This document shows, piece after piece, positions 1 through 15,691 of a stretch of 64,000 bases of DNA (its first letter is position 1; each line of letters starts with the position of its first letter). Source of the DNA: Cytophagales bacterium (lineage in GTDB: Bacteria > Bacteroidota > Bacteroidia > Cytophagales > UBA9547); contig JANRIG010000019.1 of assembly GCA_033765235.1 (NCBI GenBank), positions 143,313 through 207,312 on the forward strand. The letters run 5' to 3'. Made by a program: the position numbers and the translations under genes. Under the pieces are notes generated by a model that saw nothing but the letters and a program-made list of their open reading frames with translations, was not told where the DNA came from and searched no databases.

Positions 1-66
1 GATAACTCAGCAGAAAGCATGAAATATTACGATAATATATACTCTAATTCAATCAAAATCGCATGA
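1..66 (+). CDS. 3' end of an ORF entering from upstream of the window (hypothetical, element-associated)
   Basis: Frame 1 is open from the window edge (..DNSAESMKYYDNIYSNSIKIA). Stop TGA at 64-66 overlaps the next ATG at 63 (ATGA). Confidence 0.3.
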   Translation, partial: DNSAESMKYYDNIYSNSIKIA

Positions 67-299
67 AAGATAAAACTGAAATTGTTATTAATGGGCTTAT
101 TGATTTGCTTCAATTTGAGGCAAATTATTTACTACTCTTAGACAGGCTCATACACTCATGCCAAAACGACTTTGAAATAGATCAAAAGGTCAAGGCAAAT
201 GAAATTATGCAAAGTATAAATCATCGTTTTAACACGCTATTACATATAACAGCTAAGCGATTAGGCAAAGAGCAGGCGCAAAAACTTATGAGAATATGA
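63..299 (+). CDS. hypothetical protein (helical), phage-like element
   Basis: ORF track. ATGA overlap with the next ORF at 296-299. No family recognised. Confidence 0.5.
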   Translation: MKDKTEIVINGLIDLLQFEANYLLLLDRLIHSCQNDFEIDQKVKANEIMQSINHRFNTLLHITAKRLGKEQAQKLMRI

Positions 300-631
300 G
301 AGATATAAGTATTTTAGAATGTTACTTATTAGCCCGGCAATGCATGGACAAGTATATTGAAATATTGAAAATCATGAGCAAAATGTCAATATATGAGAGG
401 CAAGAGTCGAGCATCATTATTCGCAATGCAGAGCGTAAACTTAAGAGGATTGAAAAAATATTTCAAGATTGTGAGAAGCACATAGCCAATGTGAATGAGC
501 TCAAATCTGAGATTATGCAAGATTTAATAAATATTCGCAAAATATTGAATGAAGATTTTTCTCACCGTGGCAGGCGATTGGAAACCACTGCGGACAAGGT
601 GAGTTTTGGAGGTAGGCTGTGTAGCAATTGA
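296..631 (+). CDS. hypothetical coiled-coil-like protein, phage-like element
   Basis: ORF track. Translationally coupled to the previous ORF and followed by a strong hairpin plus T-run. Confidence 0.5.
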   Translation: MRDISILECYLLARQCMDKYIEILKIMSKMSIYERQESSIIIRNAERKLKRIEKIFQDCEKHIANVNELKSEIMQDLINIRKILNEDFSHRGRRLETTADKVSFGGRLCSN

Positions 632-662
632 GTAACATCGTTATTGCTACACCTACTTTTTT
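612..662 (+). terminator. Rho-independent terminator-like hairpin
   Basis: GTAGG(ctg)TGTAGCAAT, a 14-nt loop, ATTGCTACACCTAC, then a T-run at 656-662. Confidence 0.6.
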
Positions 663-684
663 ATTTATAGTGTAAATTATTTAT

Positions 685-945
685 ATGAAAACGATAGATT
701 TAAACAAAATAAAGAAAACCAAGAGCGGAAATAAGGTATATAATCTGAACATAGGCTATTTGACGAACGAAAGCCAATTAAATCCTCCAAATCATATTTT
801 GGGAGAAATTCCATGCAATGACTTAGGTGGCACCATTAAGACGCATTGGGATTTTGCCGGCAAAAATTACGCAAGCCCTGAATATGACTTGGTAATTGTA
901 CATAATGAAGAAAAACAAAAAGGAATGCAGTTAGAGCTTTTCTGA
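685..945 (+). CDS. hypothetical protein, phage-like element
   Basis: ORF track. No recognisable motif. Confidence 0.45.
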   Translation: MKTIDLNKIKKTKSGNKVYNLNIGYLTNESQLNPPNHILGEIPCNDLGGTIKTHWDFAGKNYASPEYDLVIVHNEEKQKGMQLELF

Positions 946-953
946 AAAAAACG

Positions 954-984
954 GTTGTCCCTTTGAAGTATAACAAGGGACAAC
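954..984. promoter_or_regulatory. Perfect 10-bp-stem hairpin abutting the rep gene; candidate replication-origin (nick) hairpin or minus-sense terminator
   Basis: GTTGTCCCTT (954-963), loop TGAAGTATAAC, AAGGGACAAC (975-984). An A7 run lies upstream and no T-run lies downstream on the + strand. Confidence 0.4.
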
Positions 985-1020
985 TTGACAAAGTCGCCTA
1001 AAAAACCTGATTTGAGCAAA

Positions 1021-2151
1021 ATGAGTGATAACTTCGATAAATATAACAATTCTAATATAACCATAGCAGTGGACTGGTTTGAGTTTTTTGGAAATACAAA
1101 ATGTTCTGTGCTATTAAATAATTACAAACCCGATGAAAAAAAGGAATTTCAAACTATTGACTATGGCTATAATCTTGTCGTGCTTAATATGGGCCATGGC
1201 ACCCCTATGTATAATGTACTGTATGAAATATATGTAGGAGGTGAGTTGTTTGCTTCTTTGCAAACACACCCCCGATTTGTAAAGGGAGACTTTAAAGATA
1301 ACAGCATAAGTTTTAAAATTGCCAACAACCAATTATATTCTGATAAATGGGTAGATAATATGGCAGAAATTATGGATTTGCTAAAATTGAAAATTAATAA
1401 CATTACAAGGCTTGATATATGCATAGACGGCTGTAATGGTGTGTTGAAATTTCTAAACAGCTTTGTTAAGCAAACACCAGAGAGTAAATCATATATCAAA
1501 ATGGGCAAAGCTACAATGAGTAGTTGCATGTTTGATAGCAATACTTTAAGCTATAGTTCATTTACGTTTGGCAAGAGAACAAGCGATAAGTATTTGATAG
1601 TCTATAATAAGACCAAAGAACTTGAACGGTCCAATAAAAAATATATTGAAAAATTTTGGCTGAAAAATGGCTTGATGGCAGAAATTGTATACCGTGTTGA
1701 GATACGATTAACCTCTAAAGTTTTGGCACAAATACAATTAACGGACATTAGCATGCTGCTCGACACGACTTATTTGGCGTCTTTATTTAGAACTGCGAGC
1801 GATAATTTTTTTCATTTCAAAAAAAATACAGGAGATACAAATAAAAGCCGTGAACAGGATGTGAATTTAATACCTTATGAATTGTTGTGCGGTGAACTAT
1901 TGGCAAAGTCGCAAAGACCTAAAACCACCCACAGATATAAGGCTAAGCTCACTATTCGTAAATGTCATTTTGACCTCAACGTAAAAGAAAATAGTATTGA
2001 TTCTGAAATAATGCTTGAGCGTGTGATACAGCGAAATATAGATGAATTTGATTTGCAAAAATGGTACCTTGCAAGTGTGCCTACTTGGCTTAAAGAGTAC
2101 AAAGTTCATAAATCTACAGGACATGTATATTCAACCGTAAACTATGAATAA
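1021..2151 (+). CDS. Rolling-circle replication initiator, Rep_trans-like (PF02486-type)
   Basis: The track ORF starts at TTG 985; I prefer the in-frame ATG at 1021. Blocks ITRLDICIDG, LIVYNKTKE and YRVEIRL resemble the RxDxxxD / YxK / RxExR blocks of the Rep_trans family as I recall them. Confidence 0.65.
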   Translation: MSDNFDKYNNSNITIAVDWFEFFGNTKCSVLLNNYKPDEKKEFQTIDYGYNLVVLNMGHGTPMYNVLYEIYVGGELFASLQTHPRFVKGDFKDNSISFKIANNQLYSDKWVDNMAEIMDLLKLKINNITRLDICIDGCNGVLKFLNSFVKQTPESKSYIKMGKATMSSCMFDSNTLSYSSFTFGKRTSDKYLIVYNKTKELERSNKKYIEKFWLKNGLMAEIVYRVEIRLTSKVLAQIQLTDISMLLDTTYLASLFRTASDNFFHFKKNTGDTNKSREQDVNLIPYELLCGELLAKSQRPKTTHRYKAKLTIRKCHFDLNVKENSIDSEIMLERVIQRNIDEFDLQKWYLASVPTWLKEYKVHKSTGHVYSTVNYE

Positions 2152-2356
2152 GCATTACCAACCCTGCGAAATTATACAGAAATTTCCTGCGTGTCCATTC
2201 ACGGAGGCGCAAATAGGAGTACTATTCTCTGCAGGTTTACTGAGAGGCGTGCGAAAACACAGGTACACGTTGATTGAGTTCGACTCAGTAATAGCCCTTG
2301 TAAAATTCAGAAATGAGAATATTGAGCGCAGTAAAACTAAAATAGATGTCTCTTAA
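2144..2356 (+). CDS. small protein, possibly excisionase/HTH_17-like DNA binding
   Basis: 70 aa, overlapping the rep stop by 8 nt. The FTEAQIGVLFSAGLLRGVRKHRYTLIEFDSV pattern loosely resembles MerR/excisionase-type HTH proteins. Confidence 0.3.
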   Translation: MNKHYQPCEIIQKFPACPFTEAQIGVLFSAGLLRGVRKHRYTLIEFDSVIALVKFRNENIERSKTKIDVS

Positions 2357-2663
2357 AATATTTCATATAAAACATTTACAGGATTATTTCAAAGCATTGC
2401 CTGAAATAAAATATGTGTGGCTATTTGGCTCGTATGCCAAGGGGCTTAATGATAAATATAGTGATATAGATTTACTTGTAGAATATGACATGTCTATAAA
2501 GCTAAGTATAAAAGAGCATAAGGACAGCATAGAAAAAATAACAAAAATAAAAACACAGATAGTACCACTAAACGGGTTAGATGTCTCATTCCTTAATAAA
2601 ATAACACCGCACGCCATATTAATATATACACACTCCCCTACACTACCCTTGCGCATGCTGTAA
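2346..2663 (+). CDS. Minimal nucleotidyltransferase (MNT/MntA-like, pol-beta fold)
   Basis: LFGSYAKGLNDKYSDIDLLV matches the GSxxxG...SDxDL signature. 105 aa. No adjacent HEPN-like partner. Confidence 0.7.
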   Translation: MSLKIFHIKHLQDYFKALPEIKYVWLFGSYAKGLNDKYSDIDLLVEYDMSIKLSIKEHKDSIEKITKIKTQIVPLNGLDVSFLNKITPHAILIYTHSPTLPLRML

Positions 2664-2692
2664 ATGTTTGTGATTTTTGCAGAGTTATTATC

Positions 2693-3574
2693 ATGGCATC
2701 ATGTGAGAGCACCGAAATAGTAAGCGCAAGTACTACGATTGATAAAACGATTGAGTACATTAAACGCTTCACTATAGCAGGCAGTCTAAATAGTGAGATT
2801 AAGGCAATAGCTTCAGAGTGCAGATATAGTAGCGACGTTCTTAAATGTGTGTTTGATGCTGTTTATACCCGTGTAGTATATTCACCTGACCCGCCTAATC
2901 GACAAGTCATCAAGGCCGTTCATTGCACTTTGTCCAACGGTATTGGTAACTGCACAGACTATAGCATATTAATAGGAGCGATACTAATAAACTTGCGCAT
3001 ACCATTTGCCTATAAAGTTGTAAGTTACAGCGAACCGGGGCAATATGAGCACATATACATTGTATCGCGACTTAATAACAAAGATATATATCTTGATTGT
3101 GTACTTGGGCAGCGACAAGATGGGAGCGATACTATTGCGAATAGACCTGAAGCAGGGTTATATAATAAAGAGGTAAAATATAAATACTATAAAATTTATC
3201 CAATGACTCAGCTTGAGATATTGCAAGGTGTGAGAGAATTGCAGACAGGAAATAAAAGGCCATTAAATAGAGTCGCTTATTTCAGGCGTGACAGAGATGT
3301 CATGAGTAGCTCTTTAGGGTTCTGTTTCTTAGGCATTGCCGGCGATTGCCGAGCACCTGAAGAGAGAATAGCAGATGAGATAAATAATAATAGTATAGAA
3401 GATACTTTAATAAACCCTCTTAAATTACTCGTTGCTGAGGCAAAGGGAAAAGGATTGGTAGAGGGGGGAGATTATATTAAAATTGGAGAAAATATTATAG
3501 GCAAAGACGTAATAGGATTGCTTAAAATTGCTGGTATAGGAGTCGGCGCATATATATTATGGAAAATGATATGA
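2693..3574 (+). CDS. Transglutaminase-like (Cys-His-Asp papain-fold) protein with C-terminal membrane anchor
   Basis: GNCTDYSILIGAILINLRIPF ... EHIYIV ... YLDCV fits the transglutaminase-core C/H/D spacing. The C-terminal hydrophobic segment is VIGLLKIAGIGVGAYILWKMI. Confidence 0.55.
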   Translation: MASCESTEIVSASTTIDKTIEYIKRFTIAGSLNSEIKAIASECRYSSDVLKCVFDAVYTRVVYSPDPPNRQVIKAVHCTLSNGIGNCTDYSILIGAILINLRIPFAYKVVSYSEPGQYEHIYIVSRLNNKDIYLDCVLGQRQDGSDTIANRPEAGLYNKEVKYKYYKIYPMTQLEILQGVRELQTGNKRPLNRVAYFRRDRDVMSSSLGFCFLGIAGDCRAPEERIADEINNNSIEDTLINPLKLLVAEAKGKGLVEGGDYIKIGENIIGKDVIGLLKIAGIGVGAYILWKMI

Positions 3575-3762
3575 AATTAGGAATTGCACCGGTCGTAATA
3601 CCTCTTATATATGCAGGCGGATTAGTTGCTTCGTCATTGATAGGTGCAATAGGAGGCGGAGGTGATGAACCTCCTCCCCCTCAACAAAAAGACTACACAC
3701 CGTACATTATAGGCGGTGCATTCATATTGGGTATTGTTTTAATAAAAACATTAAAAAAATGA
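3559..3762 (+). CDS. small membrane protein (2 TM-like segments)
   Basis: 67 aa with two hydrophobic stretches around a GGGGDEPPPPQQ linker. Overlaps both neighbours. Confidence 0.5.
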   Translation: MENDMKLGIAPVVIPLIYAGGLVASSLIGAIGGGGDEPPPPQQKDYTPYIIGGAFILGIVLIKTLKK

Positions 3763-4160
3763 TAAATAGATTCCAAAAATCGAGATTAGGGAATAGTGTA
3801 ACTCGCGAAACTATTACGCCTGGCGTGGTAATAACTTCTAATAGCAATAAAAATGCCCGATTATCTTCGCAAAGTAATTCACAAGGGTATAATGTAGAGG
3901 TATTCGACAAGGGGTGGGGAACAAACGGTAATGCAGTGGAAATTTTTTGGGGCGATGACGACAAATTATATGCCAAAAATAGAGATAACGGATATTATTA
4001 CTTCGATCAGGGCAAATGGATAGAAATATCCCCTGCAGCTTATTTGTCACGCAAACCCACAATAAAGAATAACCTAATACCAATAGCCCTAGGAGCTGTG
4101 GCGTTGATTTTGGGATATAAATTTGTAGTAAAACCAATGCTTAGCAAAAATAAAAAGTAG
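3759..4160 (+). CDS. hypothetical protein with C-terminal TM anchor
   Basis: 133 aa. ATGA overlap with the previous ORF. C-terminal segment LIPIALGAVALILGYKFVV. Confidence 0.5.
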   Translation: MINRFQKSRLGNSVTRETITPGVVITSNSNKNARLSSQSNSQGYNVEVFDKGWGTNGNAVEIFWGDDDKLYAKNRDNGYYYFDQGKWIEISPAAYLSRKPTIKNNLIPIALGAVALILGYKFVVKPMLSKNKK

Positions 4161-4367
4161 ATGATACGCTTAGGCTGTAACTGTAATAATCATTTGCAAG
4201 GTGTTGAGGATACTTTGAGTAACTTGATAAACCCTGTGGATGAGGTATTTGTAAAGCAGGAAGACGGCAGTAGAGCTTTAGTAGTTAAAGGCTCATTCGA
4301 CATGCAAAGTATTCTGATGCTTGGAGTAGTCATATTAGGTGTCGGTATAGTGATTAAAAAAGTATAA
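4161..4367 (+). CDS. small protein with C-terminal TM anchor
   Basis: 68 aa, abutting the previous stop. C-terminal segment ILMLGVVILGVGIVIKKV. Confidence 0.45.
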   Translation: MIRLGCNCNNHLQGVEDTLSNLINPVDEVFVKQEDGSRALVVKGSFDMQSILMLGVVILGVGIVIKKV

Positions 4368-4385
4368 AAATAAAATTTAAAAACC

Positions 4386-4775
4386 ATGGCAAAAAAGAAA
4401 GCAAAATTAAAATCAAAATTCAACTATAGTGGTGCTATAGATATGTTTATGGCGGGTGCTGGTGGCTATCTTGGTACGCAAGTAACCACTGTCATAGAGA
4501 AAAACGGAGCACTTAAAGATAACCAATCATTTGCGCCGGCAGTCACGGCGGCCATAGGGTTTGCGCTAAGTATGTTCATGCCTCAGATTGGCAAGGTTGC
4601 GGAAGGGATGACGACCGTGGCTATTACTGAGCTGCTCAGCAACATTGTAAGTACTGGTACGGCCGCGGCAGCAACGTCTACAAAACAAACTCAAGGAGCG
4701 TACATGGGTTATGTGCCTCGTTTAGTGCCTCAAGGCGAAAATGTAAAAACAATTAATAATACTGTAATTAAATAA
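4386..4775 (+). CDS. membrane protein (Lys-rich N-terminus, 2-3 hydrophobic segments)
   Basis: 129 aa, starting MAKKKAKLKSK, followed by Gly/Ala-rich hydrophobic stretches. Confidence 0.5.
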   Translation: MAKKKAKLKSKFNYSGAIDMFMAGAGGYLGTQVTTVIEKNGALKDNQSFAPAVTAAIGFALSMFMPQIGKVAEGMTTVAITELLSNIVSTGTAAAATSTKQTQGAYMGYVPRLVPQGENVKTINNTVIK

Positions 4776-4791
4776 TTAAACTCAAAAAAAA

Positions 4792-5334
4792 ATGATAAAC
4801 AATAGCAATCTATTTGAGACGTTAATACTCAATCTCACCCAACCGGATGCCATACTCAATGCTTTGGCTGCGTATATCAAAAAGCAAAATCTTACTTACG
4901 ACAATGCTAAAGTTTTTGCAAAATATGTAGAAGGAAGTAACCGTGTCGTGGTATCTCTGACAAACCAAACTTGGTTTCAAGACGTCACATTCCCTCAAAG
5001 TGAGCACTTTATCGTATTGGCACTGCGTGTGTTGTCTGGGGCGAATGCTACGTTAGCAGCCTCGGCATGGTTGCCTGGGGTTGCGGATGCGCTCACCATA
5101 AATGGTAGTATATCTCTGACAAATAACGGTGTAGTATTTTTGAAAAATTTACCCCTAACCGTATTCCCATTGAGCACCAATAATGCTGATATAGAGGCTG
5201 GTTTCTTTATATTGGAAAAACCCATATTATGGCAGGCACAAACAAGTCTGAGTATTTTGGCTACATGGGCTACTGCTCCGAGTACAGCAAACCAAAACTT
5301 GAGATTTGAGCTTTGGGGATATAAACTTATATAG
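4792..5334 (+). CDS. hypothetical beta-rich protein (candidate capsid component)
   Basis: 180 aa. Composition is beta-strand-like (alternating hydrophobic residues, T/S/N-rich) with no TM segment. First of three consecutive such ORFs. Confidence 0.5.
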   Translation: MINNSNLFETLILNLTQPDAILNALAAYIKKQNLTYDNAKVFAKYVEGSNRVVVSLTNQTWFQDVTFPQSEHFIVLALRVLSGANATLAASAWLPGVADALTINGSISLTNNGVVFLKNLPLTVFPLSTNNADIEAGFFILEKPILWQAQTSLSILATWATAPSTANQNLRFELWGYKLI

Positions 5335-5361
5335 TCTATTCCACATAAATAATTAAAAAAA

Positions 5362-5718
5362 ATGGAAATAATAGACAACGGACAGCTGTTAATTCAGAGC
5401 ATTAACACCACAGCTACAGCAAGCGTGACCACTACTGGGCAAAGCACTATAATCACTAATAGAGGTAATGTAAAGAAAGTGACCATAGAGCCCGGTACAG
5501 ATACCGTAGCAGATTTGGCAGTATGTACAATAACGATACTGATAAATTCAGTAGAGGTAATACAAACAGTGCCACTGTCACTATTTAGCCGTACTACTCA
5601 GGCAATCCAAAAAATGTTCAAAGTCAACTGGGCAGAGGGTAGTACAATCGGTTTCAGAATTGTGAATGGCTCAGGCAATAACATACCTGTGGCAATAATA
5701 CTTTACTTTGATAACTAA
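5362..5718 (+). CDS. hypothetical beta-rich protein (candidate capsid/vertex component)
   Basis: 118 aa, T/V/I-rich, no TM segment. Confidence 0.5.
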   Translation: MEIIDNGQLLIQSINTTATASVTTTGQSTIITNRGNVKKVTIEPGTDTVADLAVCTITILINSVEVIQTVPLSLFSRTTQAIQKMFKVNWAEGSTIGFRIVNGSGNNIPVAIILYFDN

Positions 5719-5981
5719 TGAAAGGGCTTAAGTCGCAACCTATTGTAATTACTGAAGATGGAATATTTGACGTACAAAAATACGGTGAGATTATAAGCGT
5801 GTCTTTCAAAAATCAAGGGACGAGTAATGTAACGCTCTGGGAGGTATATAATGTGCCTGCAGGCAGCCCGTTACTTGTGTTAGAAGGTGAGATAGGGTTT
5901 ATTCGCAAAGACGTAGTACCTGTAACATTTGCTACAGGCGGAGTGAATAATTTAGTAGTGTTTATAACAACAGAGGCGTAA
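5718..5981 (+). CDS. hypothetical beta-rich protein
   Basis: 87 aa. The start shares nucleotide 5718 with the previous stop (TAATG). Confidence 0.5.
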   Translation: MKGLKSQPIVITEDGIFDVQKYGEIISVSFKNQGTSNVTLWEVYNVPAGSPLLVLEGEIGFIRKDVVPVTFATGGVNNLVVFITTEA

Positions 5982-6701
5982 ATGTATTTAAGTAAAGAAA
6001 AAATATTGCAATTATGTACTGAAAGCAAATTTAACTGGTGCAGGGCTTACCTTATATCGGACAAGAATGATTGCGTATTTTTTTACTCTATCGACAAACA
6101 CAAAAATGAAACACTCATTGACCGGCTAAATAGCTTCTTTGAATATTGCAATGAGGCAGTAAGTATGAAATTTAAAGTAAACCCTACAGACCATGACACA
6201 CAAGCAGTAGTGTATGAGTATAAGCCAGCCTTTGCAGCAAGTCACGCGCATGAGGCGGTGGCATTGCATGGTGTAGTAGATGAAGCAAAATTGCGCAAAA
6301 GCATTATGGTTGAGGTAAAAGCAGAATTTGAGCGCAAAGAAGAAAGAGAAAAATTAGAAAGTGCATGGGATGAAATAAAAGAAGAGAGAGAAAGGCTTAA
6401 AAATTGGGCAAACAAATTATCAATAGTGGCCGAGAGCGTGCTTATGAATTTGGTAGCCAAAAGCCCAATGTTGCAAGGGCTTTTGGCTGGCAATATGGCT
6501 CCCGCTCCTGTGCTGCAGGGGGTTCCTCAAACAGAAAACGAGGAACAAAATAGCATGACTAATGAAGAAGTGCAGCGCATTAATAATGCAGTAAACAAAA
6601 TATTAATGCATTTTACAGTCCCGGAATTTGAAGCAGCAGCCGAGTTCCTTACCAAAAATGTAGATATGTCCAAAAATTTCATAAAACCATTAATAAAATA
6701 A
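5982..6701 (+). CDS. hypothetical protein with central charged coiled-coil (scaffold/assembly-like)
   Basis: 239 aa, abutting the previous stop. Contains the charged segment EAKLRKSIMVEVKAEFERKEEREKLESAWDEIKEERERLKNW. Confidence 0.5.
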   Translation: MYLSKEKILQLCTESKFNWCRAYLISDKNDCVFFYSIDKHKNETLIDRLNSFFEYCNEAVSMKFKVNPTDHDTQAVVYEYKPAFAASHAHEAVALHGVVDEAKLRKSIMVEVKAEFERKEEREKLESAWDEIKEERERLKNWANKLSIVAESVLMNLVAKSPMLQGLLAGNMAPAPVLQGVPQTENEEQNSMTNEEVQRINNAVNKILMHFTVPEFEAAAEFLTKNVDMSKNFIKPLIK

Positions 6702-6704
6702 AAA

Positions 6705-6920
6705 ATGGCTACCAAAAAAAGTAAAACAAAAAAAAGAGCAACAAGTGGTAATTCTTTGAAAAAATTTGTCACTTCTGTTTATAAAAATGCAAAAGTAAGA
6801 AAAATAAAGTCTCAAATGGCAAAAATTGAACGCGCCTACAAAGCAGCGGTGAATGCTGCAAAACGTAGCTATAAAATATCAGCGAAAAAAAAGACGGTTA
6901 AAAAACGCAGAGCAGCATGA
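6705..6920 (+). CDS. highly basic Lys/Arg-rich small protein (nucleic-acid-binding candidate)
   Basis: 71 aa: MATKKSKTKKRATSG...KKKTVKKRRAA. Roughly one third of residues are K or R. Confidence 0.5.
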   Translation: MATKKSKTKKRATSGNSLKKFVTSVYKNAKVRKIKSQMAKIERAYKAAVNAAKRSYKISAKKKTVKKRRAA

Positions 6921-6921
6921 T

Positions 6922-7365
6922 ATGGGTTTGTTTTGGACGGTATCACCTACTATAAGCGATGCAGATATAGTAGCTGGGTTTGAGAAAGATATTGATAATT
7001 GGCTCTGTAGCCAATGGCGCACATATTATGAGCGTATAAAAATAAAATACGGACAAGCTAAAGCCTTAGACGTAATAAGAATTGATAGTGAGAGAATAGG
7101 GTGGTTTGCAAAATTGCATAATTGTAAATATGACTGCAATTTTATTGACTACTTCAAAAAAGAAGGGTTGGAGGGAGGAAATTTGATAAGTAAAGTCTAT
7201 TGTGCGGGCACTGATGTAGCAGGTGCTATAGGCGATACAGCAAGTGCTGTGGGCAATGTGGGCGACGTGCTAAGTGCATTAACGGATAAAAAAATACTCC
7301 TAAGTGGAGTACTAATAGCAGGTATAACATTTATATATATTAATTATGGCAAACAAAAAAGATAA
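6922..7365 (+). CDS. hypothetical protein with C-terminal TM anchor
   Basis: The track ORF starts at 6853 inside the previous gene; I prefer ATG 6922, just after that gene's stop. C-terminal segment LLSGVLIAGITFIYINY. Confidence 0.45.
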   Translation: MGLFWTVSPTISDADIVAGFEKDIDNWLCSQWRTYYERIKIKYGQAKALDVIRIDSERIGWFAKLHNCKYDCNFIDYFKKEGLEGGNLISKVYCAGTDVAGAIGDTASAVGNVGDVLSALTDKKILLSGVLIAGITFIYINYGKQKR

Positions 7366-7624
7366 CTCAGGCGGTGGAATTGATACCACTACAATACTCA
7401 TACTCGGAGCAGTAGGAGTTGGTGCATATTTCCTCATCACACAAATGGGCAAAAATAATACAGGAGCTGCAGCACCACGCGATCCCATTAGTCAAATATT
7501 GGACAGCAGCGCAGGCATAATTAATTCTATAACTAGTGGGCTGCAGCTGTTTATAAAGCCAAAGAACAGCGGAAATACAGGTGCTGCAGATTATACACCC
7601 GGCTATGGTGTGCCGATAACATAA
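7346..7624 (+). CDS. small membrane protein (1 TM)
   Basis: 92 aa with TM-like segment TTTILILGAVGVGAYFLITQ. Confidence 0.45.
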   Translation: MANKKDNSGGGIDTTTILILGAVGVGAYFLITQMGKNNTGAAAPRDPISQILDSSAGIINSITSGLQLFIKPKNSGNTGAADYTPGYGVPIT

Positions 7625-7635
7625 ATATATTAGAA

Positions 7636-7929
7636 ATGGTTGTAGAAATAATAACAATTTTAGGACTTGGATTATTGGCAAATGCCAAAAACAAAAAAGA
7701 TAGTAGCACTACCACTACTACTACTGTACAGCCGGATATTGCCAAAATAAATACATACGAAAAAAATTGGGAAAATGTATATATGAACTATGCTATGGCT
7801 AACTACCCCGCAAGTGGTATGAGTGCCTTGCACAATCGTAAAGCAGAATTGAGTAAAATAACACAAACAGTAGATACTGTGAGTGAATTACAAGCATTAA
7901 ATGAACTAATAGATAGATACGAATCATGA
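7636..7929 (+). CDS. small protein with N-terminal TM segment
   Basis: 97 aa, starting MVVEIITILGLGLLANA, followed by a poly-Thr tract. Confidence 0.45.
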   Translation: MVVEIITILGLGLLANAKNKKDSSTTTTTTVQPDIAKINTYEKNWENVYMNYAMANYPASGMSALHNRKAELSKITQTVDTVSELQALNELIDRYES

Positions 7930-8096
7930 AAAAAATATTAAGGAATTGGAAAACAAGCCTTAGCGGCTTAGCAAGTGTAATCTTAGGTATAATTAGTATT
8001 GCAGGCGGCGATGTAGGCACTGGCATAGCTACCATAGTGAGCGGTGTAGGTTTAGTGGCTGCTAAAGACTCAGACGTAACAGGTACAGCGCAATAA
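7926..8096 (+). CDS. holin-like small membrane protein (below ORF-track size cut-off)
   Basis: My own translation gives 56 aa: MKKILRNWKTSLSGLASVILGIISIAGGDVGTGIATIVSGVGLVAAKDSDVTGTAQ. ATGA overlap upstream and TAATG overlap with the lysin gene downstream. Confidence 0.45.
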   Translation: MKKILRNWKTSLSGLASVILGIISIAGGDVGTGIATIVSGVGLVAAKDSDVTGTAQ

Positions 8097-8698
8097 TGGC
8101 AAATTTTGATATTGCAATTGTAGAAATTTTTAAGAATGAGGGAGGCTACCAAAATCATCCAAGTGATAGAGGTAATTATAACTCATTAGGTGAAAATGTA
8201 GGCACAAATTACGGCATAAGCGCAAAAACGTATGAGGGGTATATAAACAGACCGCCTACAGCCGATGATATGCGCAATATGACTATCTCAACGGCTAAGA
8301 CTATATACAAACGGAGCTATTGGGATGCTTACAAATTGGGCAGCATAAATGACCAATTCATTGCCTCGCACATCTTGGATTTGTTTGTGAACCACAGCCC
8401 TAAAGCAGCTGCAGAAATTGCACAGAAAGCTATCGTAAAAACTCCTCCTTTTTTCACCAAAGTAGATGGCATATTTGGGCCAAAAACAATAGCCACAATA
8501 AACCAGATAGCAAGTAATGGTAAGGCAAGTGAGCTTAACACTAATATAGTAAACGAGCGTAAATTATATTATAATAGTTTGGGAAATTTGAGCTTTTTGG
8601 ACGGCTGGACAAATAGAGCTCATTCATGGGGAGAGTACGCAAATATATTAGTACCGGTAATACCAACTATTGCCATGTTTTTTTTTTGTCATACATAA
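8096..8698 (+). CDS. GH108-family N-acetylmuramidase-like lysin with PG_binding_3-like domain
   Basis: FKNEGGYQNHPSDRG...NYGIS is the EGGY block. It also carries YWD, VDGIFGPKTIATINQ and GWTNRAHSW. The C-terminal tail is hydrophobic. Confidence 0.8.
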   Translation: MANFDIAIVEIFKNEGGYQNHPSDRGNYNSLGENVGTNYGISAKTYEGYINRPPTADDMRNMTISTAKTIYKRSYWDAYKLGSINDQFIASHILDLFVNHSPKAAAEIAQKAIVKTPPFFTKVDGIFGPKTIATINQIASNGKASELNTNIVNERKLYYNSLGNLSFLDGWTNRAHSWGEYANILVPVIPTIAMFFFCHT

Positions 8699-8707
8699 CT
8701 TATAAAT

Positions 8708-9208
8708 ATGCCGGGAGTAGGAGTATTTGAGATTGAATATAAGCGCAATGTTTACGTAGATGCTAATGCATTCATACCGGCGCAATCATCACCCGCGGTG
8801 CCGGGTACATCAGAAGATGGTTCTTTCGGAGTTAACTGGGACTACATGGGCTATGAGCCCTTAGTCAATAGCGCAGCATGGTGCAAGGTCAAAATGAACG
8901 AAACGGCGCAGCAATTATATATAAAATTGTTCTACGAGACGGAGGGTTTGGCAGGTGATGTTTACTTGCTATTTAAGAATATCTTTGTAGCTCCTGATGG
9001 AGGATTTGGACAAATCCCTCAGGTGACTGAGGTGCCTCTTCTAGACATGAGTCCTAACGCCTCTGTACAAAGCGTGAGCTTTGTTGTAAGCATTGCACAA
9101 AGCATCAGCGACAATGGTTTATTAGTATTCGCAGTAGAGCGTTTTGGCACCTACGCGGCAGATACTTACCCCGGAGTATTCAAATTTTTAGGACTTGAAA
9201 TAAAATAA
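8708..9208 (+). CDS. hypothetical beta-rich protein (spike/receptor-binding candidate)
   Basis: 166 aa, no TM segment, no family recognised. Confidence 0.45.
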   Translation: MPGVGVFEIEYKRNVYVDANAFIPAQSSPAVPGTSEDGSFGVNWDYMGYEPLVNSAAWCKVKMNETAQQLYIKLFYETEGLAGDVYLLFKNIFVAPDGGFGQIPQVTEVPLLDMSPNASVQSVSFVVSIAQSISDNGLLVFAVERFGTYAADTYPGVFKFLGLEIK

Positions 9209-9210
9209 AT

Positions 9211-9435
9211 ATGAGCATTATAGTGCCTCTTTGTGTAATGTTTTTTTCTGCTGTTTTTTTGCCATTGCTTTATAACAGCTTCAAAATATATTTCGAAATG
9301 CCTATTTTAAAAAAAAACATAGAAGACATACAAACTGAGGTCGATATAATAAAAAATGATGTATCATTTATTCGTGAAAATATCGCCGAAATAAAAACAG
9401 CGTTGCGCTTTATAGATGATACAGAGAGCCCGTAG
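9211..9435 (+). CDS. small protein, N-terminal TM plus coiled-coil
   Basis: 74 aa, starting MSIIVPLCVMFFSAVFLPLLY, followed by a heptad-like segment. Confidence 0.45.
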   Translation: MSIIVPLCVMFFSAVFLPLLYNSFKIYFEMPILKKNIEDIQTEVDIIKNDVSFIRENIAEIKTALRFIDDTESP

Positions 9436-10177
9436 ATATACTAATATCAAAGAAGCAATATTTTTTAGCAACCTCGTGCGCCTTGCGGGCGGATATGCGC
9501 TATCTCAGGTGGAGTATTACGGCATATCCTATGCCATTGACAGATTTAGGCGAAATGGAATTTTTCAAAAACTATTGGCATACTACCCACTACTTACTCC
9601 TGAAGGACCTGGAGCATCAAAAAATATAATATCTGCAAGTTACGCATTATCATTTACAGGTCCGTTTACCTATGGTAATGGCGTGGCAGGCGATGGGCTC
9701 ACAGCTTATGCAAGCGGAGGAATAACTCCGGCACTCTTACTGTCGGTTAATAATACCACACTTGGTTTTTTTACAAAAGCCACAACTTATGAAGCCTGTA
9801 ACGACATGGGTATGCATTTTTTTGACATAAGTGCATGGGGGATATTTGGAGCGACAACGCTAAATAGCGCGTACAGTAATCCCAATTCCTTTAACATTGC
9901 AATTGCATCGCCTCAGGGGAGTAATGTGTGTACTGTAGATGGTGCCAATGTGTATGGAGTTAAAGACGGAATAACTGTATATACTGCCGCCGCGGCGGCA
10001 GGATCATTTGTGCCAGATGAATTATTTATTTTTGGCTATAACTTCTTTGGCGCTCCGTCGCAACTTAGCAGCCGTACATATCTGTCCTACTACATAGGTA
10101 ATGGACTCACCGAAGCGCAAGCAAAAAAGATCAATAATATTGAAACCACATATAACAAAACAATAGGCAGATTATGA
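9416..10177 (+). CDS. hypothetical protein, possibly concanavalin/LamG-like jelly-roll (adhesin or capsid candidate)
   Basis: 253 aa. The C-terminal pattern LFIFGYNFFG...SRTYLSYYIGNGLTEAQAKKI resembles the end of LamG-type lectin-fold domains. Confidence 0.4.
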   Translation: MIQRARRYTNIKEAIFFSNLVRLAGGYALSQVEYYGISYAIDRFRRNGIFQKLLAYYPLLTPEGPGASKNIISASYALSFTGPFTYGNGVAGDGLTAYASGGITPALLLSVNNTTLGFFTKATTYEACNDMGMHFFDISAWGIFGATTLNSAYSNPNSFNIAIASPQGSNVCTVDGANVYGVKDGITVYTAAAAAGSFVPDELFIFGYNFFGAPSQLSSRTYLSYYIGNGLTEAQAKKINNIETTYNKTIGRL

Positions 10178-10452
10178 CAGTACTCGTAGATAATACAGGA
10201 AAAATAATAAAATATGGTGTAAGCGATGAAATTAGCAGCACTAAATTAAAAGCACTTGGTCTTACAAAAGTAGTGTACAATGATAATTTCAAAATGCCTC
10301 AGTATGATGGGGTTAAGTTTGTTGAAACGTATATAGCACCTGCGCCAATGGTTAATTACTTTGTGGTTTTGCTAAAAGAGATAATTAAAGAAACAAAAAT
10401 AGAAAACAGCGTAATATCAGATGCATTAGCAAAAATTGAAGGCAAAAAGTAA
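10174..10452 (+). CDS. hypothetical protein
   Basis: 92 aa. ATGA overlap with the previous ORF. Confidence 0.45.
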   Translation: MTVLVDNTGKIIKYGVSDEISSTKLKALGLTKVVYNDNFKMPQYDGVKFVETYIAPAPMVNYFVVLLKEIIKETKIENSVISDALAKIEGKK

Positions 10453-10529
10453 AAAAAAACTGCCAATTGAAAGCCTTTTTTTTTATTAGAAAAATATGTA
10501 TAATTGCGACTTACGCAAATACATATATC

Positions 10530-10853
10530 ATGAAAAAAACAATCTTAATATTAATTCTATTGCTGCTAAGTTGTAGCAAAAAAGAAGAAGAAATAATTAA
10601 ACCACGCTGTGAGACAGAAAAATGGGGAAGCCTTAAAATACTCAATGTTAATTCGAGTAATCCTTATTATATTTATCTTGATGGCACCTATAGAGCCACT
10701 GTAGATGGCAGAGGTACAATAACTCTTATAGAGTTAAGCACAGGCACACATACGTTATATTTAGTTCAAAAGTCAGGGTATGTATTGGCGGCTACTACCT
10801 ACTCAAGTAGTATTACTATTGCCCAGTGTAGCACAAAAGAGTATCAGTTTTAA
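10530..10853 (+). CDS. lipoprotein (last ORF of the element)
   Basis: I prefer ATG 10530. MKKTILILILLLLSCSKKEE is a lipobox-like signal with Cys. Confidence 0.55.
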   Translation: MKKTILILILLLLSCSKKEEEIIKPRCETEKWGSLKILNVNSSNPYYIYLDGTYRATVDGRGTITLIELSTGTHTLYLVQKSGYVLAATTYSSSITIAQCSTKEYQF

Positions 10854-10997
10854 GCTACCTTTAAAAGAAAAAAAAGAGTTTCCACTCACTGCATGGCAGT
10901 GATATATATGCATGAAGTAAATGACAAAATATTATTCTGCAATATCTAAAATCGAGTTGAAATTAATCAAATTTTATTAGGTTTTCCCTTCGTGTAG

Positions 10998-11395: not shown

Positions 11396-12133
11396 ATGAA
11401 TAACAAATTCCATATCATACCGGCTATAGATATCATAGGAGGTAAATGTGTACGGCTCACCAAAGGAGATTATAATAATATGACGCTGTACAACGAGCAC
11501 CCGCTCGAGGTGGCATTAATGTTTGAAGATGCAGGTATTACAAAACTGCACCTTGTAGACCTTGATGGTGCCAAAGCTAAAAAAATAATAAACTATAAAG
11601 TGCTTGAAACATTAGCCACAAAAACGCATCTGCAAATTGACTTTGGTGGAGGCATACAATCTGATGAAGATATCAATATTGCTTTTGAATGTGGTGCACA
11701 GCAAATCACAGGTGGATCTGTAGCCGTGAAAAACAAAGATTTATTTAGTTCATGGTTAAGCAAATACAGTGCTGAAAAAATAATACTAGGTGCTGATGTC
11801 ATAAGTCATAAAATAGCCATACACGGTTGGCAAAATACATCTGACATTGATTTGGATGATTTTATTTCCGAATATTTAAAAATAGGTATAAAATATACTA
11901 TAAGCACAGATGTGTCTAAAGATGGTATGCTTACAGGTCCTTCATTTGAAATGTATAGCGATATGAAACAAAAATTCCCTTCACTCTGCATAATAGCCAG
12001 TGGTGGAGTAAGTAATATAGAAGATGTGATAAAACTTTCGGAACTGAATATTTATGGAGTAGTGATAGGCAAGGCTTTATATGAAGGTAAGATAAAAATT
12101 GGCGATATAAGTAGCATTAATAAATACCTATAG
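11396..12133 (+). CDS. hisA: 1-(5-phosphoribosyl)-5-[(5-phosphoribosylamino)methylideneamino]imidazole-4-carboxamide isomerase
   Basis: IIPAIDIIGGKCVRLTKGDY, HLVDLDGA, GGGI and ASGGV are typical HisA blocks. Confidence 0.9.
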   Translation: MNNKFHIIPAIDIIGGKCVRLTKGDYNNMTLYNEHPLEVALMFEDAGITKLHLVDLDGAKAKKIINYKVLETLATKTHLQIDFGGGIQSDEDINIAFECGAQQITGGSVAVKNKDLFSSWLSKYSAEKIILGADVISHKIAIHGWQNTSDIDLDDFISEYLKIGIKYTISTDVSKDGMLTGPSFEMYSDMKQKFPSLCIIASGGVSNIEDVIKLSELNIYGVVIGKALYEGKIKIGDISSINKYL

Positions 12134-12183: not shown

Positions 12184-12636
12184 ATGTACATATCAGATTT
12201 TAAACTTCTTGATATACTTCGTGAAAAAATGGGCGAAGATGAAGCCCGTGCGCTCGTAGAATTTATAGAGATTAAAGTAGAAGACAAATATATTGAAGCC
12301 AAAAATGTATTTGCTACCAAAGAGGACCTCTTAAAACTTGAACTAAAAATAGTACAAGTAATACACAACAATCATTTGGAAGTACAAAAACTTATTGCAG
12401 ATACCAAGATAGAGACACAAAAAATTATTGCAGAGTCAAAAAATGACTTGCAAAAACTTATGGCAGAGTCAAAAAATGACTTGCAAAAACTTGTGGCAGA
12501 CTCAAAAAATGATTTGCAAAAACTTATTGCAGACTCTAAGTTTGAAACCATCAAGTGGCTTTTTGGATTTATATTGACCTCTACGGTAGCTATCATAGGT
12601 ACTATACTGGCCGTGATGAAAATGGGTGGCTGGTAA
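12184..12636 (+). CDS. DUF1640-like coiled-coil protein with C-terminal TM anchor and internal 11-aa repeats
   Basis: (A/V)(E/D)SKNDLQKL(M/V/I) is repeated. C-terminal segment WLFGFILTSTVAIIGTILAV. Confidence 0.6.
   Translation: MYISDFKLLDILREKMGEDEARALVEFIEIKVEDKYIEAKNVFATKEDLLKLELKIVQVIHNNHLEVQKLIADTKIETQKIIAESKNDLQKLMAESKNDLQKLVADSKNDLQKLIADSKFETIKWLFGFILTSTVAIIGTILAVMKMGGW
12397..12540 (+). repeat. In-frame 33-bp tandem repeat (about 4.4 copies) inside the coiled-coil gene
   Basis: GCAGAGTCAAAAAATGACTTGCAAAAACTTATG at 12430, 12463 and 12496. A degenerate copy lies at 12397 and a partial copy at 12529. Confidence 0.85.
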
Positions 12637-13831: not shown

Positions 13832-14775
13832 CAGTCTTTTCTAAATATTGATTTGAATATGAATAATATATATCGCAATATTATATATACAAAACCTTGT
13901 TTCACAATTATATATGGTTGTAATTTTATCAATTTATGTAAGTATGAAATTGACTTTGCAGGTTCTTTGTTGTTTAGATATTCTCGTACAATTTTTATAT
14001 ATACTCCCCTATTTATTACTTCACCATATGTTTTATTAAATACCTGATTATTAGCATAATATTCAAATATTTTTTGTAGCATCAATAGCCTTTGATTGGT
14101 AATGAAATCAACCTTTTGCGAGGATAGATTTAATGAATTTGCAAACACTCTGTAAGTCACAGTCACTACACCTGTGCCGTACCAAGGTCTCAAATCTGAT
14201 ACACACATCCAGAATAGATAGTCTTCAGGGTATCTGAGGTCTTCCTGAAATTGTAATTTTTTTTCAACAATGGTTTCATGCCTGATGCATACCGCAGAGG
14301 TAGTCACAGGATTTTCGTAAAAATATTTTTTTGGTAATATTTGATTGGGCAGCATTTTTTTTTTGACAATGATATTATTATCCACATTTAATATTTGTAC
14401 ATTGCTGTAATATAATATTCCTTGAGGATATTTTTGGATAATGTCATACAATGATTGCAAATGGTTTGGAAGCCACAAATCATCATCATCCAAAAAACAT
14501 ATATACTTGCCTGTGCATTGCTCCAGTCCTCTATTGCGGCTGTATGCAGGTCCGGAGTTTGTAGTATTTGTGTGAATATATATCCTATTATCGGGTAATA
14601 TTGAGGTAAGGTAGCCTTTTACAGGGTAGCCTGAGGCATCATCGCAAATGCGTACTTCAAAGTCATTAAACGACTGATTTAAAACAGATTGAACAGCCTC
14701 TGTTAAAGATATTTTGCGATTGTGAGTGGGTATTATTACAGAAAAATATGGCCTCGATACATCTGATGCTTCCAA
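13822..14775 (-). CDS. Family 2 glycosyltransferase
   Basis: FSVIIPTHNRKISLTEAVQSVLNQSFNDFEVRICDDAS and FLDDDD are classic GT2 motifs. Confidence 0.85.
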   Translation of the reverse strand: MEASDVSRPYFSVIIPTHNRKISLTEAVQSVLNQSFNDFEVRICDDASGYPVKGYLTSILPDNRIYIHTNTTNSGPAYSRNRGLEQCTGKYICFLDDDDLWLPNHLQSLYDIIQKYPQGILYYSNVQILNVDNNIIVKKKMLPNQILPKKYFYENPVTTSAVCIRHETIVEKKLQFQEDLRYPEDYLFWMCVSDLRPWYGTGVVTVTYRVFANSLNLSSQKVDFITNQRLLMLQKIFEYYANNQVFNKTYGEVINRGVYIKIVREYLNNKEPAKSISYLHKLIKLQPYIIVKQGFVYIILRYILFIFKSIFRKDCCK

Positions 14776-14791
14776 AACTCACATTGTGCGA

Positions 14792-15691
14792 TTAATATAC
14801 TATTTGTGGTATTAATGCCGATTTTTGCAATTCTTTCTGTATTTTATCTTTTAAAGATTCGCTAGCATTTACCAAAGGCAATCTTACATTTCTTTTGGTC
14901 AATCCCATTACCTCCAATAAGCATTTTACACCCACAGGATTACCTTCTTCAAAAATGAGTTTTATCACTTCGTTTATTTTTTGCACATCAGTGGCTACTG
15001 AGGCAAAGTCATTGTTTAGCGCATGACTTGTAATATTTGAAAATACATGTGGCAATGCATTGGCCAACGCCGATATAACCCCTACTCCACCGATGGACAT
15101 GATAGGCAATGTGAGTATATCATCCCCCGAAATGAGCAAAAAGTCAGGGTGTGTTCCTCTTTTCACATCTACTAATTGATTGAAATCTGAGGTACATTCT
15201 TTGATACCTATTATATTTTTGTTTTCAGAGAGCTTTATGGTGGTGTGCGATGCAATATTTACCCCTGTGCGCCCGGGTATGTTATAAATAATAATTGGCA
15301 CAGGGCACTTGCTTGCAAGAGCAGTATAGTGCTCATATATACCTGCTTGTGTGGGTTTGTTGTAATATGGACATACAGATAGCACTCCATCTACAGATTT
15401 GAAATCAAAGTCTTCTATTTTTGATATGATATCTGCTGTGTCATTGCCGCCAAGCCCGAGCATCATCGGCAAGCGGTGTTTGTTTACCAATTTTACATGC
15501 TCCAGCACTGCTCTTTTTTCTTTGCCTGAGAGAGTAGGTGCTTCGCCCGTAGTGCCTAGAGCTACTAAATAGTCGGCACCATTTGCAATACTATGTTCTA
15601 TCACTTTGGTGAGTGACTCAAAGTCAATTTGCAGATTGTCTTTGAATGGGGTGACTAAGGCTATACCCGTGCCATGAAACTGCTTGTGCAT
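14792..15691 (-). CDS. dapA: 4-hydroxy-tetrahydrodipicolinate synthase
   Basis: GTGIALVTPF, ALGTTGEAPTLS and IYNIPGRTG blocks. Confidence 0.9.
   Translation of the reverse strand: MHKQFHGTGIALVTPFKDNLQIDFESLTKVIEHSIANGADYLVALGTTGEAPTLSGKEKRAVLEHVKLVNKHRLPMMLGLGGNDTADIISKIEDFDFKSVDGVLSVCPYYNKPTQAGIYEHYTALASKCPVPIIIYNIPGRTGVNIASHTTIKLSENKNIIGIKECTSDFNQLVDVKRGTHPDFLLISGDDILTLPIMSIGGVGVISALANALPHVFSNITSHALNNDFASVATDVQKINEVIKLIFEEGNPVGVKCLLEVMGLTKRNVRLPLVNASESLKDKIQKELQKSALIPQIVY

Follow-up and report, generated by a model that had tools for sequence, protein, structure and literature searches.

Among the described viruses with which the locus reported here can be compared are the Helvetiavirae (P23-77, IN93, HCIV-1, HHIV-2 and SH1) and the unclassified Salisaeta phage SSIP-1, which have two adjacent small single-barrel capsid genes, many small membrane proteins and an FtsK/HerA packaging ATPase encoded beside the capsid genes on 17–44 kb of double-stranded DNA (dsDNA). 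The capsomers of P23-77 consist of VP17 monomers plus VP16 homodimers (PMC4958249), and HCIV-1 has two-tower capsomers (PMC6414509). SSIP-1 infects a Bacteroidetes host and is an icosahedral phage with a membrane, for which a PRD1-type architecture and two types of capsid protein have been reported (PMC6356626, PMC4958249). A further type, that of FLiP, PhiCjT23 and phi12:2 (Finnlakeviridae and relatives), has one double jelly-roll capsid protein of 239–311 amino acids (aa); PhiCjT23 is a lipid-containing single-stranded DNA (ssDNA) phage (PMC9719478). The origin of double jelly-roll capsid proteins from single barrels and the ancestry of the viruses with two barrel genes are debated (PMC8812541, PMC6414509). 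Here, we describe a stretch of 64,000 nucleotides (nt) from a Cytophagales bacterium (contig JANRIG010000019.1, positions 143,313–207,312; hereafter the window), in which a block coded on one strand, at about positions 1–10,900, represents an integrated element of about 11 kb that adjoins the host gene hisA at 11396. We consider it probable, though well short of certain, that its proteins A, B and probably C form the shell module of a so far undescribed family of small elements in Bacteroidota that resemble phages; A and B are most likely shell proteins of tailless phages that constitute a new group.

The three open reading frames (ORFs) in question are the following.

A, 4792–5334, + strand: 180 aa, candidate (large) capsid protein, best-conserved structural gene in the family
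B, 5362–5718, + strand: 118 aa, candidate small capsid protein or possibly penton, distant paralogue of the core of A
C, 5718–5981, + strand: 87 aa, possible vertex or minor shell protein, beta-rich by sequence pattern

An earlier interpretation made from the letters and the predicted translations (the sequence-only reading) had singled out these ORFs as translationally coupled, beta-rich proteins free of transmembrane segments, followed by a coiled-coil, scaffold-like ORF and a highly basic one. The coordinates, lengths and strand agree exactly with that description, and both downstream neighbours are as described. The coupling is also present: the B stop codon TAA (5716–5718) and the C start codon ATG (5718–5720) overlap by one base (TAATG at 5716–5720), and the C stop codon ends at 5981, directly before the ATG of the next ORF at 5982. 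An A-rich leader (aaaaaaaaATG) lies ahead of both A and B. When membrane segments are sought with a 19-residue Kyte–Doolittle window and a cut-off of 1.6, A and C stay below the cut-off with maxima of 1.54 and 1.55, respectively, whereas B contains a single hydrophobic stretch at residues 48–70 with a maximum of 1.88. This stretch aligns with beta strands in the model of a fused B protein (BB, see below) and is therefore assigned to strands rather than to a membrane helix. Segments above the cut-off are found in the ORFs that flank the A–C module (3559–4367 and 6853–8096).

A, B and C are real genes rather than chance ORFs, because A belongs to a large family and homologues of B and C follow A in the same order on independent contigs. 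An exhaustive profile search of 1.84 billion proteins returned 199 cluster representatives (50% identity) of the A family at E ≤ 1e-3, with 131 at E ≤ 1e-10, and nearly all of these proteins are 176–216 aa long; a word-indexed search returned three A relatives only. None of the three proteins matches a Pfam, PHROG or NCBIfam family, the profiles of A and BB gave only chance-level matches to PDB sequences, and tblastn of A and of a central family member against the phage collection gave nothing. A metagenome scan yielded 7 loci. No relatives were found in IMG/VR by pattern scans, whose coverage is restricted to members with the scanned motifs, no member by pattern scans of the GTDB representative genomes, and no match by tblastn of A and BB against the plasmid collection. 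The Charybdis elements were considered as relatives and are unrelated (4.6 kb, archaeal host). We found no published description of the A/B/C family.

In the related contigs, which carry L-numbers here, the gene order is conserved: transglutaminase-like protein, small hydrophobic protein, A, B or BB, C, sometimes a variable large protein, coiled-coil protein, small proteins and lysin, the last being of the GH108, M15 or M23 type. Homologues of C lie directly after B in L005, L006, L008 and L009. In relatives that are more distant, A is followed by the gene of a protein of 264–288 aa with two B domains, i.e., BB, a covalent tandem of two B barrels. In many relatives, tandem paralogues A1 and A2, of about 190–209 aa each, stand directly before BB, for example at the following positions.

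L016, 8221–9501: A1/A2 tandem
L021, 1523–2786: A1/A2 tandem
L022, 3320–4477: A1/A2 tandem
L023, 1369–2530: A1/A2 tandem
L025, 4338–5573: A1/A2 tandem

The family thus occurs in three gene states, namely (A, B, C), (A, BB, C′) and (A1, A2, BB, C′). The protein C′ (130–147 aa, after BB) was considered as a homologue of C, which the profile comparison does not support (hhalign E 0.025), and the two are equivalent by position only. Five contigs have matching ends (L023, 8,161 nt; L022, 8,353 nt; L025, 8,615 nt; L016, 9,415 nt; L013, 10,131 nt) and hence are complete circles of 8.2–10.1 kb, and further related contigs are up to about 15 kb long. In L008 (12.2 kb), the lysin gene is split across the contig ends. 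The window element and L005 are integrated copies. The replication gene is exchanged among the relatives, with Rep_trans in the window and L006 and Rep_1 in L008 and L009, and no recognisable Rep was found in the 8-kb genomes. Some relatives also carry DNA-modification genes, i.e., a Mom-like protein (L024 3332–3772) and a D12-class methyltransferase on the opposite strand (L012 2388–3188). A protein of 212–232 aa with N-terminal NG(F/I/L)SRV repeats and no family match is encoded in L022 (2206–2901), L023 (301–939) and L025 (3223–3858).

The fold of A was predicted with AlphaFold2 from an alignment of 147 sequences, giving a mean predicted local distance difference test score (pLDDT) of 93.7 and a predicted template-modelling score (pTM) of 0.86. 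The model shows helices at residues 7–16 and 20–31 and strands at 42–52, 58–61, 73–84, 106–111, 114–121, 138–147, 153–158 and 168–179, and A is with high confidence predicted to be a jelly-roll-type beta sandwich of eight strands with two N-terminal helices. A Foldseek comparison with the PDB, which the sequence-only reading had proposed as a check, gave no match at E < 1e-3; its best-ranked matches are mainly viral jelly-roll capsid proteins, none of them close. The top matches, mostly of this viral jelly-roll kind, include the SGIV and PBCV-1 capsid proteins, CCMV, SPMV, BFDV, PLRV and a nanovirus, and further matches are a geminivirus, PCV2, the KHP30/40 cement protein, the FLiP penton (rank 34) and PHM. 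Against the predicted viral structures of BFVD, 18 matches were obtained at E < 1e-3. The first three are consecutive unnamed entries (A0A141HS21-23, 224–231 aa, E 1e-6 to 3e-5), and below them stand capsid proteins and 30K movement proteins, with an uncharacterised protein of Haloarcula hispanica pleomorphic virus 4 at rank 9. On these matches, A is predicted to belong to the viral jelly-roll fold class, with no close known relative. One A-family member, of 271 aa in L014 (1511–2326; P0110), carries an N-terminal extension with hydrophobic segments, which suggests that A works at a membrane.

The structural neighbours of A also bear on two different views of its role. Cement, tail and fibre proteins are among them as well, and these, together with the pleomorphic virus protein, the many membrane proteins of the element and the lack of an ATPase, would fit a model in which A, B and C are spike, receptor-binding or cement proteins of a pleomorphic vesicle-type virus (plasmavirus- or pleolipovirus-like) or belong to a capsid-less plasmid-like element. 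However, receptor-binding proteins are usually variable, whereas no gene is better conserved than A, the large variable proteins are encoded elsewhere in these genomes, and a strongly basic small protein and lysins are present with no plasmid matches, so that we regard such a role as very improbable. In the other view, the capsid is free of membrane and built of horizontal jelly rolls, in a comovirus-like pseudo-T=3 shell or after the manner of other ssDNA or ssRNA viruses, with A and two B barrels as the asymmetric unit and the small membrane proteins serving lysis, entry or exclusion. Many horizontal capsid proteins are indeed matched by A (CCMV, SPMV, BFDV, PLRV, nanovirus, geminivirus and PCV2). 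The comovirus pseudo-T=3 shell has a large two-barrel subunit and a small one-barrel subunit, and the A:BB pattern of one plus two barrels matches such a three-barrel protomer. Genomes of 8.2–8.6 kb would likewise suit a pseudo-T=3 shell of about 30 nm. Yet a conserved hydrophobic protein is always encoded beside A, the A protein of L014 is fused to a hydrophobic segment, the family has a virion protein in common with the membrane-containing phage SSIP-1, and the genomes with A1, A2 and BB would make four barrels instead of three. On these grounds, a membrane-free shell of this kind appears quite improbable.

B is linked to A through profile comparison. The A-family and B-family profiles align by hhalign over A 65–164 and B 26–105 (probability 83–90%, E 1.7e-6 to 8.5e-6), and an iterated jackhmmer search started from B recruits every A protein at 1e-9 to 1e-15, which together identify B as a trimmed paralogue of the A barrel. 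The BB protein of L025 was modelled with a pLDDT of 83.2 and a pTM of 0.86, giving two packed domains of about eight strands (8 in domain 2) and a linking helix at 126–134. Foldseek returned 38 PDB matches to this model at E < 1e-3, nearly all of them proteins with tandem beta-sandwich domains, which points to BB being a tandem of barrels. The listed matches span E 6e-5 to 9e-4 and include the capsid proteins of PhiCjT23 (rank 7, 6.5e-5), PM2 (rank 11), PBCV-1 (rank 13) and STIV (rank 38) as well as PNGase F and PHM, two cellular proteins that have been grouped with double jelly-roll capsid proteins (PMC8812541). Since two B domains are fused in BB, B would function as a dimer. The jelly-roll claim of the sequence-only reading thus finds support for A in its own model with viral capsid neighbours, and for B in its paralogy to A and the two predicted beta sandwiches of BB. 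For C, profile comparison detected no similarity to A or B.

The BB matches raise the possibility that the two roles are exchanged, such that the hexons are formed by B and BB. In this case, BB would be a genuine double jelly-roll protein of the PhiCjT23 and PM2 kind, unfused B would assemble into homo-hexamers, and A would be a penton protein with one barrel and an N-terminal helix in contact with the membrane, like VP9 of HCIV-1. At 264–288 aa, BB has the size of small double jelly-roll capsid proteins, and the PhiCjT23 and PM2 capsid proteins rank high among its matches. For A, the N-terminal helices are a feature also reported of the VP9 penton (PMC6414509), the matches include the FLiP penton, and the hydrophobic extension of the L014 protein is also N-terminal. 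However, A is better conserved than B among close relatives (41–51% vs. 26–41% identity), the A1/A2 duplication in many genomes would be odd for a pentamer, and the template-modelling scores (TM-scores) of BB to the PhiCjT23 and PM2 double jelly-roll capsid proteins are only 0.24–0.27. We consider this exchange of roles unlikely, with A as the larger and B as the smaller capsid protein being the preferred assignment.

The most direct link to a known virion comes from the transglutaminase-like protein at 2693–3574, which is homologous to gp34 of SSIP-1, annotated as a structural protein (tblastn E 4e-4; jackhmmer with the family profile E 4.5e-34). The gp34 homologue and a lysin are all that SSIP-1 and the family share. 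SSIP-1 further encodes gp45 and gp46 (210 and 211 aa; L027 34635–35959), adjacent structural paralogues of each other (blastp 1.35e-12, 25.7% identity) that are about the size of A1 and A2. Homology of A to these two proteins was considered; the A-family hidden Markov model ranks them first and second among 697 SSIP-1 ORFs, at values that are not significant (E 0.15 and 1.1).

Compared with the Helvetiavirae and SSIP-1, the element likewise has two neighbouring single-barrel genes, A with its modelled single barrel and its paralogue B beside it, as well as many small membrane proteins. The VP16 homodimers and VP17 monomers of P23-77 also resemble the 2:1 barrel dosage implied by the change from B to BB (PMC4958249). 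We note three differences. First, no packaging ATPase was found here, neither as a family match nor as a credible Walker A motif in the element or the complete relatives, whereas FtsK/HerA stands beside the capsid genes there. Second, the genomes here are of 8–15 kb with a rolling-circle Rep, in contrast to the larger dsDNA genomes of those viruses. Third, the A and BB profiles gave no sequence match to VP16, VP17, VP4 or VP7 in the PDB, and none of these is in the Foldseek top 50. The combination of a rolling-circle Rep with no ATPase, which the sequence-only reading expected to be unusual if joined with small single jelly-roll capsid proteins, is borne out by the Rep family match and the ATPase searches.

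With the FLiP/PhiCjT23/phi12:2 type, the element has in common Bacteroidota hosts, small circular one-strand genomes, a homologous Rep_trans, a lytic enzyme, no packaging ATPase and temperate members. The phage Reps nearest to that of the window are from the Cellulophaga phages phi12:2 and Omtje and the Flavobacterium phage PhiCjT23 (tblastn E 1e-15 to 4e-10). For an ssDNA genome in the particle, the rolling-circle Rep and the coding on one strand are indirect signs only. In contrast to the one double jelly-roll capsid protein of that type, the window element has single barrels only, and no conserved ORF of double jelly-roll size was found in it, in agreement with the sequence-only reading. 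Comparing A, B, BB and C with all structural proteins of PhiCjT23, phi12:2 and FLiP by phmmer and hhalign gave nothing, and BB resembles the capsid proteins of this type weakly. Two more distant systems also invite comparison. The Microviridae (phiX174-type) are small rolling-circle ssDNA phages with a jelly-roll coat and spike and a small, very basic DNA-binding protein. They differ in the Rep family, and the element has a larger genome and many membrane proteins; no PHROG or sequence match to the Microviridae F, G, H and J proteins was found. Sulfolobus polyhedral virus 1 (Portogloboviridae) has a dsDNA genome of about 20 kb. It resembles the element in that its capsid protein is a single jelly roll and a packaging ATPase is missing, and it has been discussed as representing the stage before the single-barrel capsid gene was duplicated (PMC8812541). 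Unlike the element, it is a virus of archaea. No similarity to it was detected, and it lies outside the top Foldseek matches of A. Tests of membership place the element in no known family, yet it resembles the known lipid-containing tailless phages.

We favour a shell role for A and B since they are the only conserved soluble beta-rich proteins, found in every genome of the family, have by prediction the fold that capsids use most and are encoded between hydrophobic and assembly-type proteins, and since lysins and the gp34 homologue are present with no match to plasmids. The genomic context is clearly phage-like, with a rolling-circle Rep, a lysin, the homologue of a membrane-phage virion protein, circular relatives of 8–12 kb and no ATPase. 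A Sphaerolipoviridae-type architecture is plausible for the predicted barrels of A and B.

Several points weigh against this assignment. The Foldseek probabilities of A to jelly-roll capsid proteins are 0.96–1.0, but the TM-scores are 0.3–0.5, those of the PDB matches being 0.3–0.45, and no Helvetiavirae capsid protein is in the top 50 matches of A, so that the fold class is supported and a specific lineage is not. The fold class of A is read from strand count and Foldseek rather than from strand pairing in the model, which in a jelly roll would give two four-stranded sheets (BIDG and CHEF), and spikes, cement proteins, lectins and enzymes can contain jelly rolls as well. For B, the predicted fold comes from its homology to A and from the BB model of a relative rather than from the window's own B. 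The capsid-protein matches of BB have TM-scores of 0.21–0.30 and rmsd values (root-mean-square deviations) of 17–19 Å, and the model does not show its two domains arranged as in a true double jelly-roll capsid protein. C looks beta-rich by its sequence pattern alone. On its left side, the element probably extends beyond the window. More generally, the family is known here from genes and models, from which its capsid role is deduced. Overall, what the sequence-only reading observed holds, and its interpretation holds in part, for the jelly roll of A, the relationship of B and the phage context; a match to Sphaerolipoviridae capsid proteins was not obtained, and the 253-aa ORF at 9416–10177, which it had put forward as a separate jelly-roll candidate, is conserved in no relative and is more likely a variable host-recognition protein.

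If A and B are shell proteins, the barrels would form a capsid that encloses or sits on a lipid vesicle, which may hold the hydrophobic protein encoded at 4386–4775, the transglutaminase-like protein and other small membrane proteins. The genome would be made by the rolling-circle Rep, condensed by the basic 71-aa protein and, because there is no packaging ATPase, enclosed during assembly, as in FLiP and PhiCjT23. Speculatively, each pseudo-hexamer might contain two A and four B, with the B dimers fused as BB in the relatives and C or C′ at the vertices. A B dimer would fit such a 2 A : 4 B pseudo-hexamer, in the manner of P23-77 or HCIV-1.

The other genes of the element are listed below.

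985–2151, + strand: rolling-circle initiator, Rep_trans (Pfam PF02486, 5.4e-11)
2346–2663: Pol-beta-type nucleotidyltransferase, between Rep and the structural genes (PF18765, 4.3e-14)
2693–3574, + strand: transglutaminase-like protein with hydrophobic C-terminal tail, weak Pfam Transglut_core match, kept in all relatives
4386–4775, + strand: small Gly/Ala-rich hydrophobic protein with basic N-terminus, directly upstream of A, homologues in all related loci
5982–6701, + strand: 239-aa protein with charged, coiled-coil-like centre, homologues at the same position in all relatives
6705–6920, + strand: highly basic 71-aa protein, 26 K+R vs. 1 D+E
6922–7365, + strand: conserved protein with C-terminal membrane segment, homologues in L005, L006, L008, L009 and L012
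8096–8698, + strand: GH108 lysin with peptidoglycan-binding domain (Pfam PF05838, 1.2e-20, and PF09374; PHROG endolysin)
8708–10177, + strand: variable block of 166-aa, 74-aa and 253-aa ORFs, no Pfam, PHROG or NCBIfam match

The nucleotidyltransferase has no homologue in the related loci compared, and no HEPN partner was recognised nearby. The hydrophobic protein upstream of A has a 19-residue maximum of 1.46, below the membrane-segment cut-off, and is a candidate virion membrane protein. For the 239-aa protein, which has no Pfam, PHROG or NCBIfam match and gave an empty tblastn result against the phage collection, roles in scaffolding, assembly or genome delivery are possible. The highly basic protein is a candidate genome-condensing protein, and the 8-kb relatives have a basic protein of about 77 aa with a KKPKKPK motif in a similar place. 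The ORF of the conserved membrane-segment protein is listed from 6853, with a likely start at 6922, and its hydrophobic segment is at 148–166 (numbering from 6853). The ORFs of the variable block, which have no homologue in any related locus and only weak tblastn matches to phage proteins, probably encode host-recognition or accessory proteins. The element is closed by a lipoprotein-like ORF at 10467–10853 with a weak BiPBP_C match, which is related to an ORF of L008; at the equivalent position, L005 encodes a PEGA-domain protein (14598–14969), and a surface or exclusion function may apply to both. Inside the window, no transfer RNA gene and no att-like repeat linking both ends of the element was found. 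Over positions 1–10000, the GC skew (+0.10 to +0.17) and the AT skew (+0.06 to +0.23) are consistently positive, which fits one-strand coding or rolling-circle replicons, and some host stretches have similar values. Outside the element, a host-side ORF at 12184–12636 encodes a tandem 11-residue motif (ESKNDLQKL...) and a hydrophobic C-terminal tail.

These data point to a sizeable group of small Bacteroidota phages without a Pfam, PHROG or NCBIfam hallmark. A more far-reaching proposal, which we offer tentatively and hold to be doubtful, is that a single bacterial virus family combines unfused (B), duplicated (A1/A2) and tandem-fused (BB) jelly-roll shell proteins with rolling-circle replication and no packaging ATPase, and that its members, if the barrels stand vertically, would be living intermediates between single- and double-barrel capsid proteins. 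Such a family would connect an architecture like that of SSIP-1 and the Helvetiavirae with small genomes of the FLiP kind, and would amount to a new taxon of family rank or higher missed by virus databases. Natural variation within the A/B/C family runs from one to four barrels per genome, in otherwise collinear genomes of 8–12 kb, through which the question of how double-barrel capsid proteins arose becomes directly testable.

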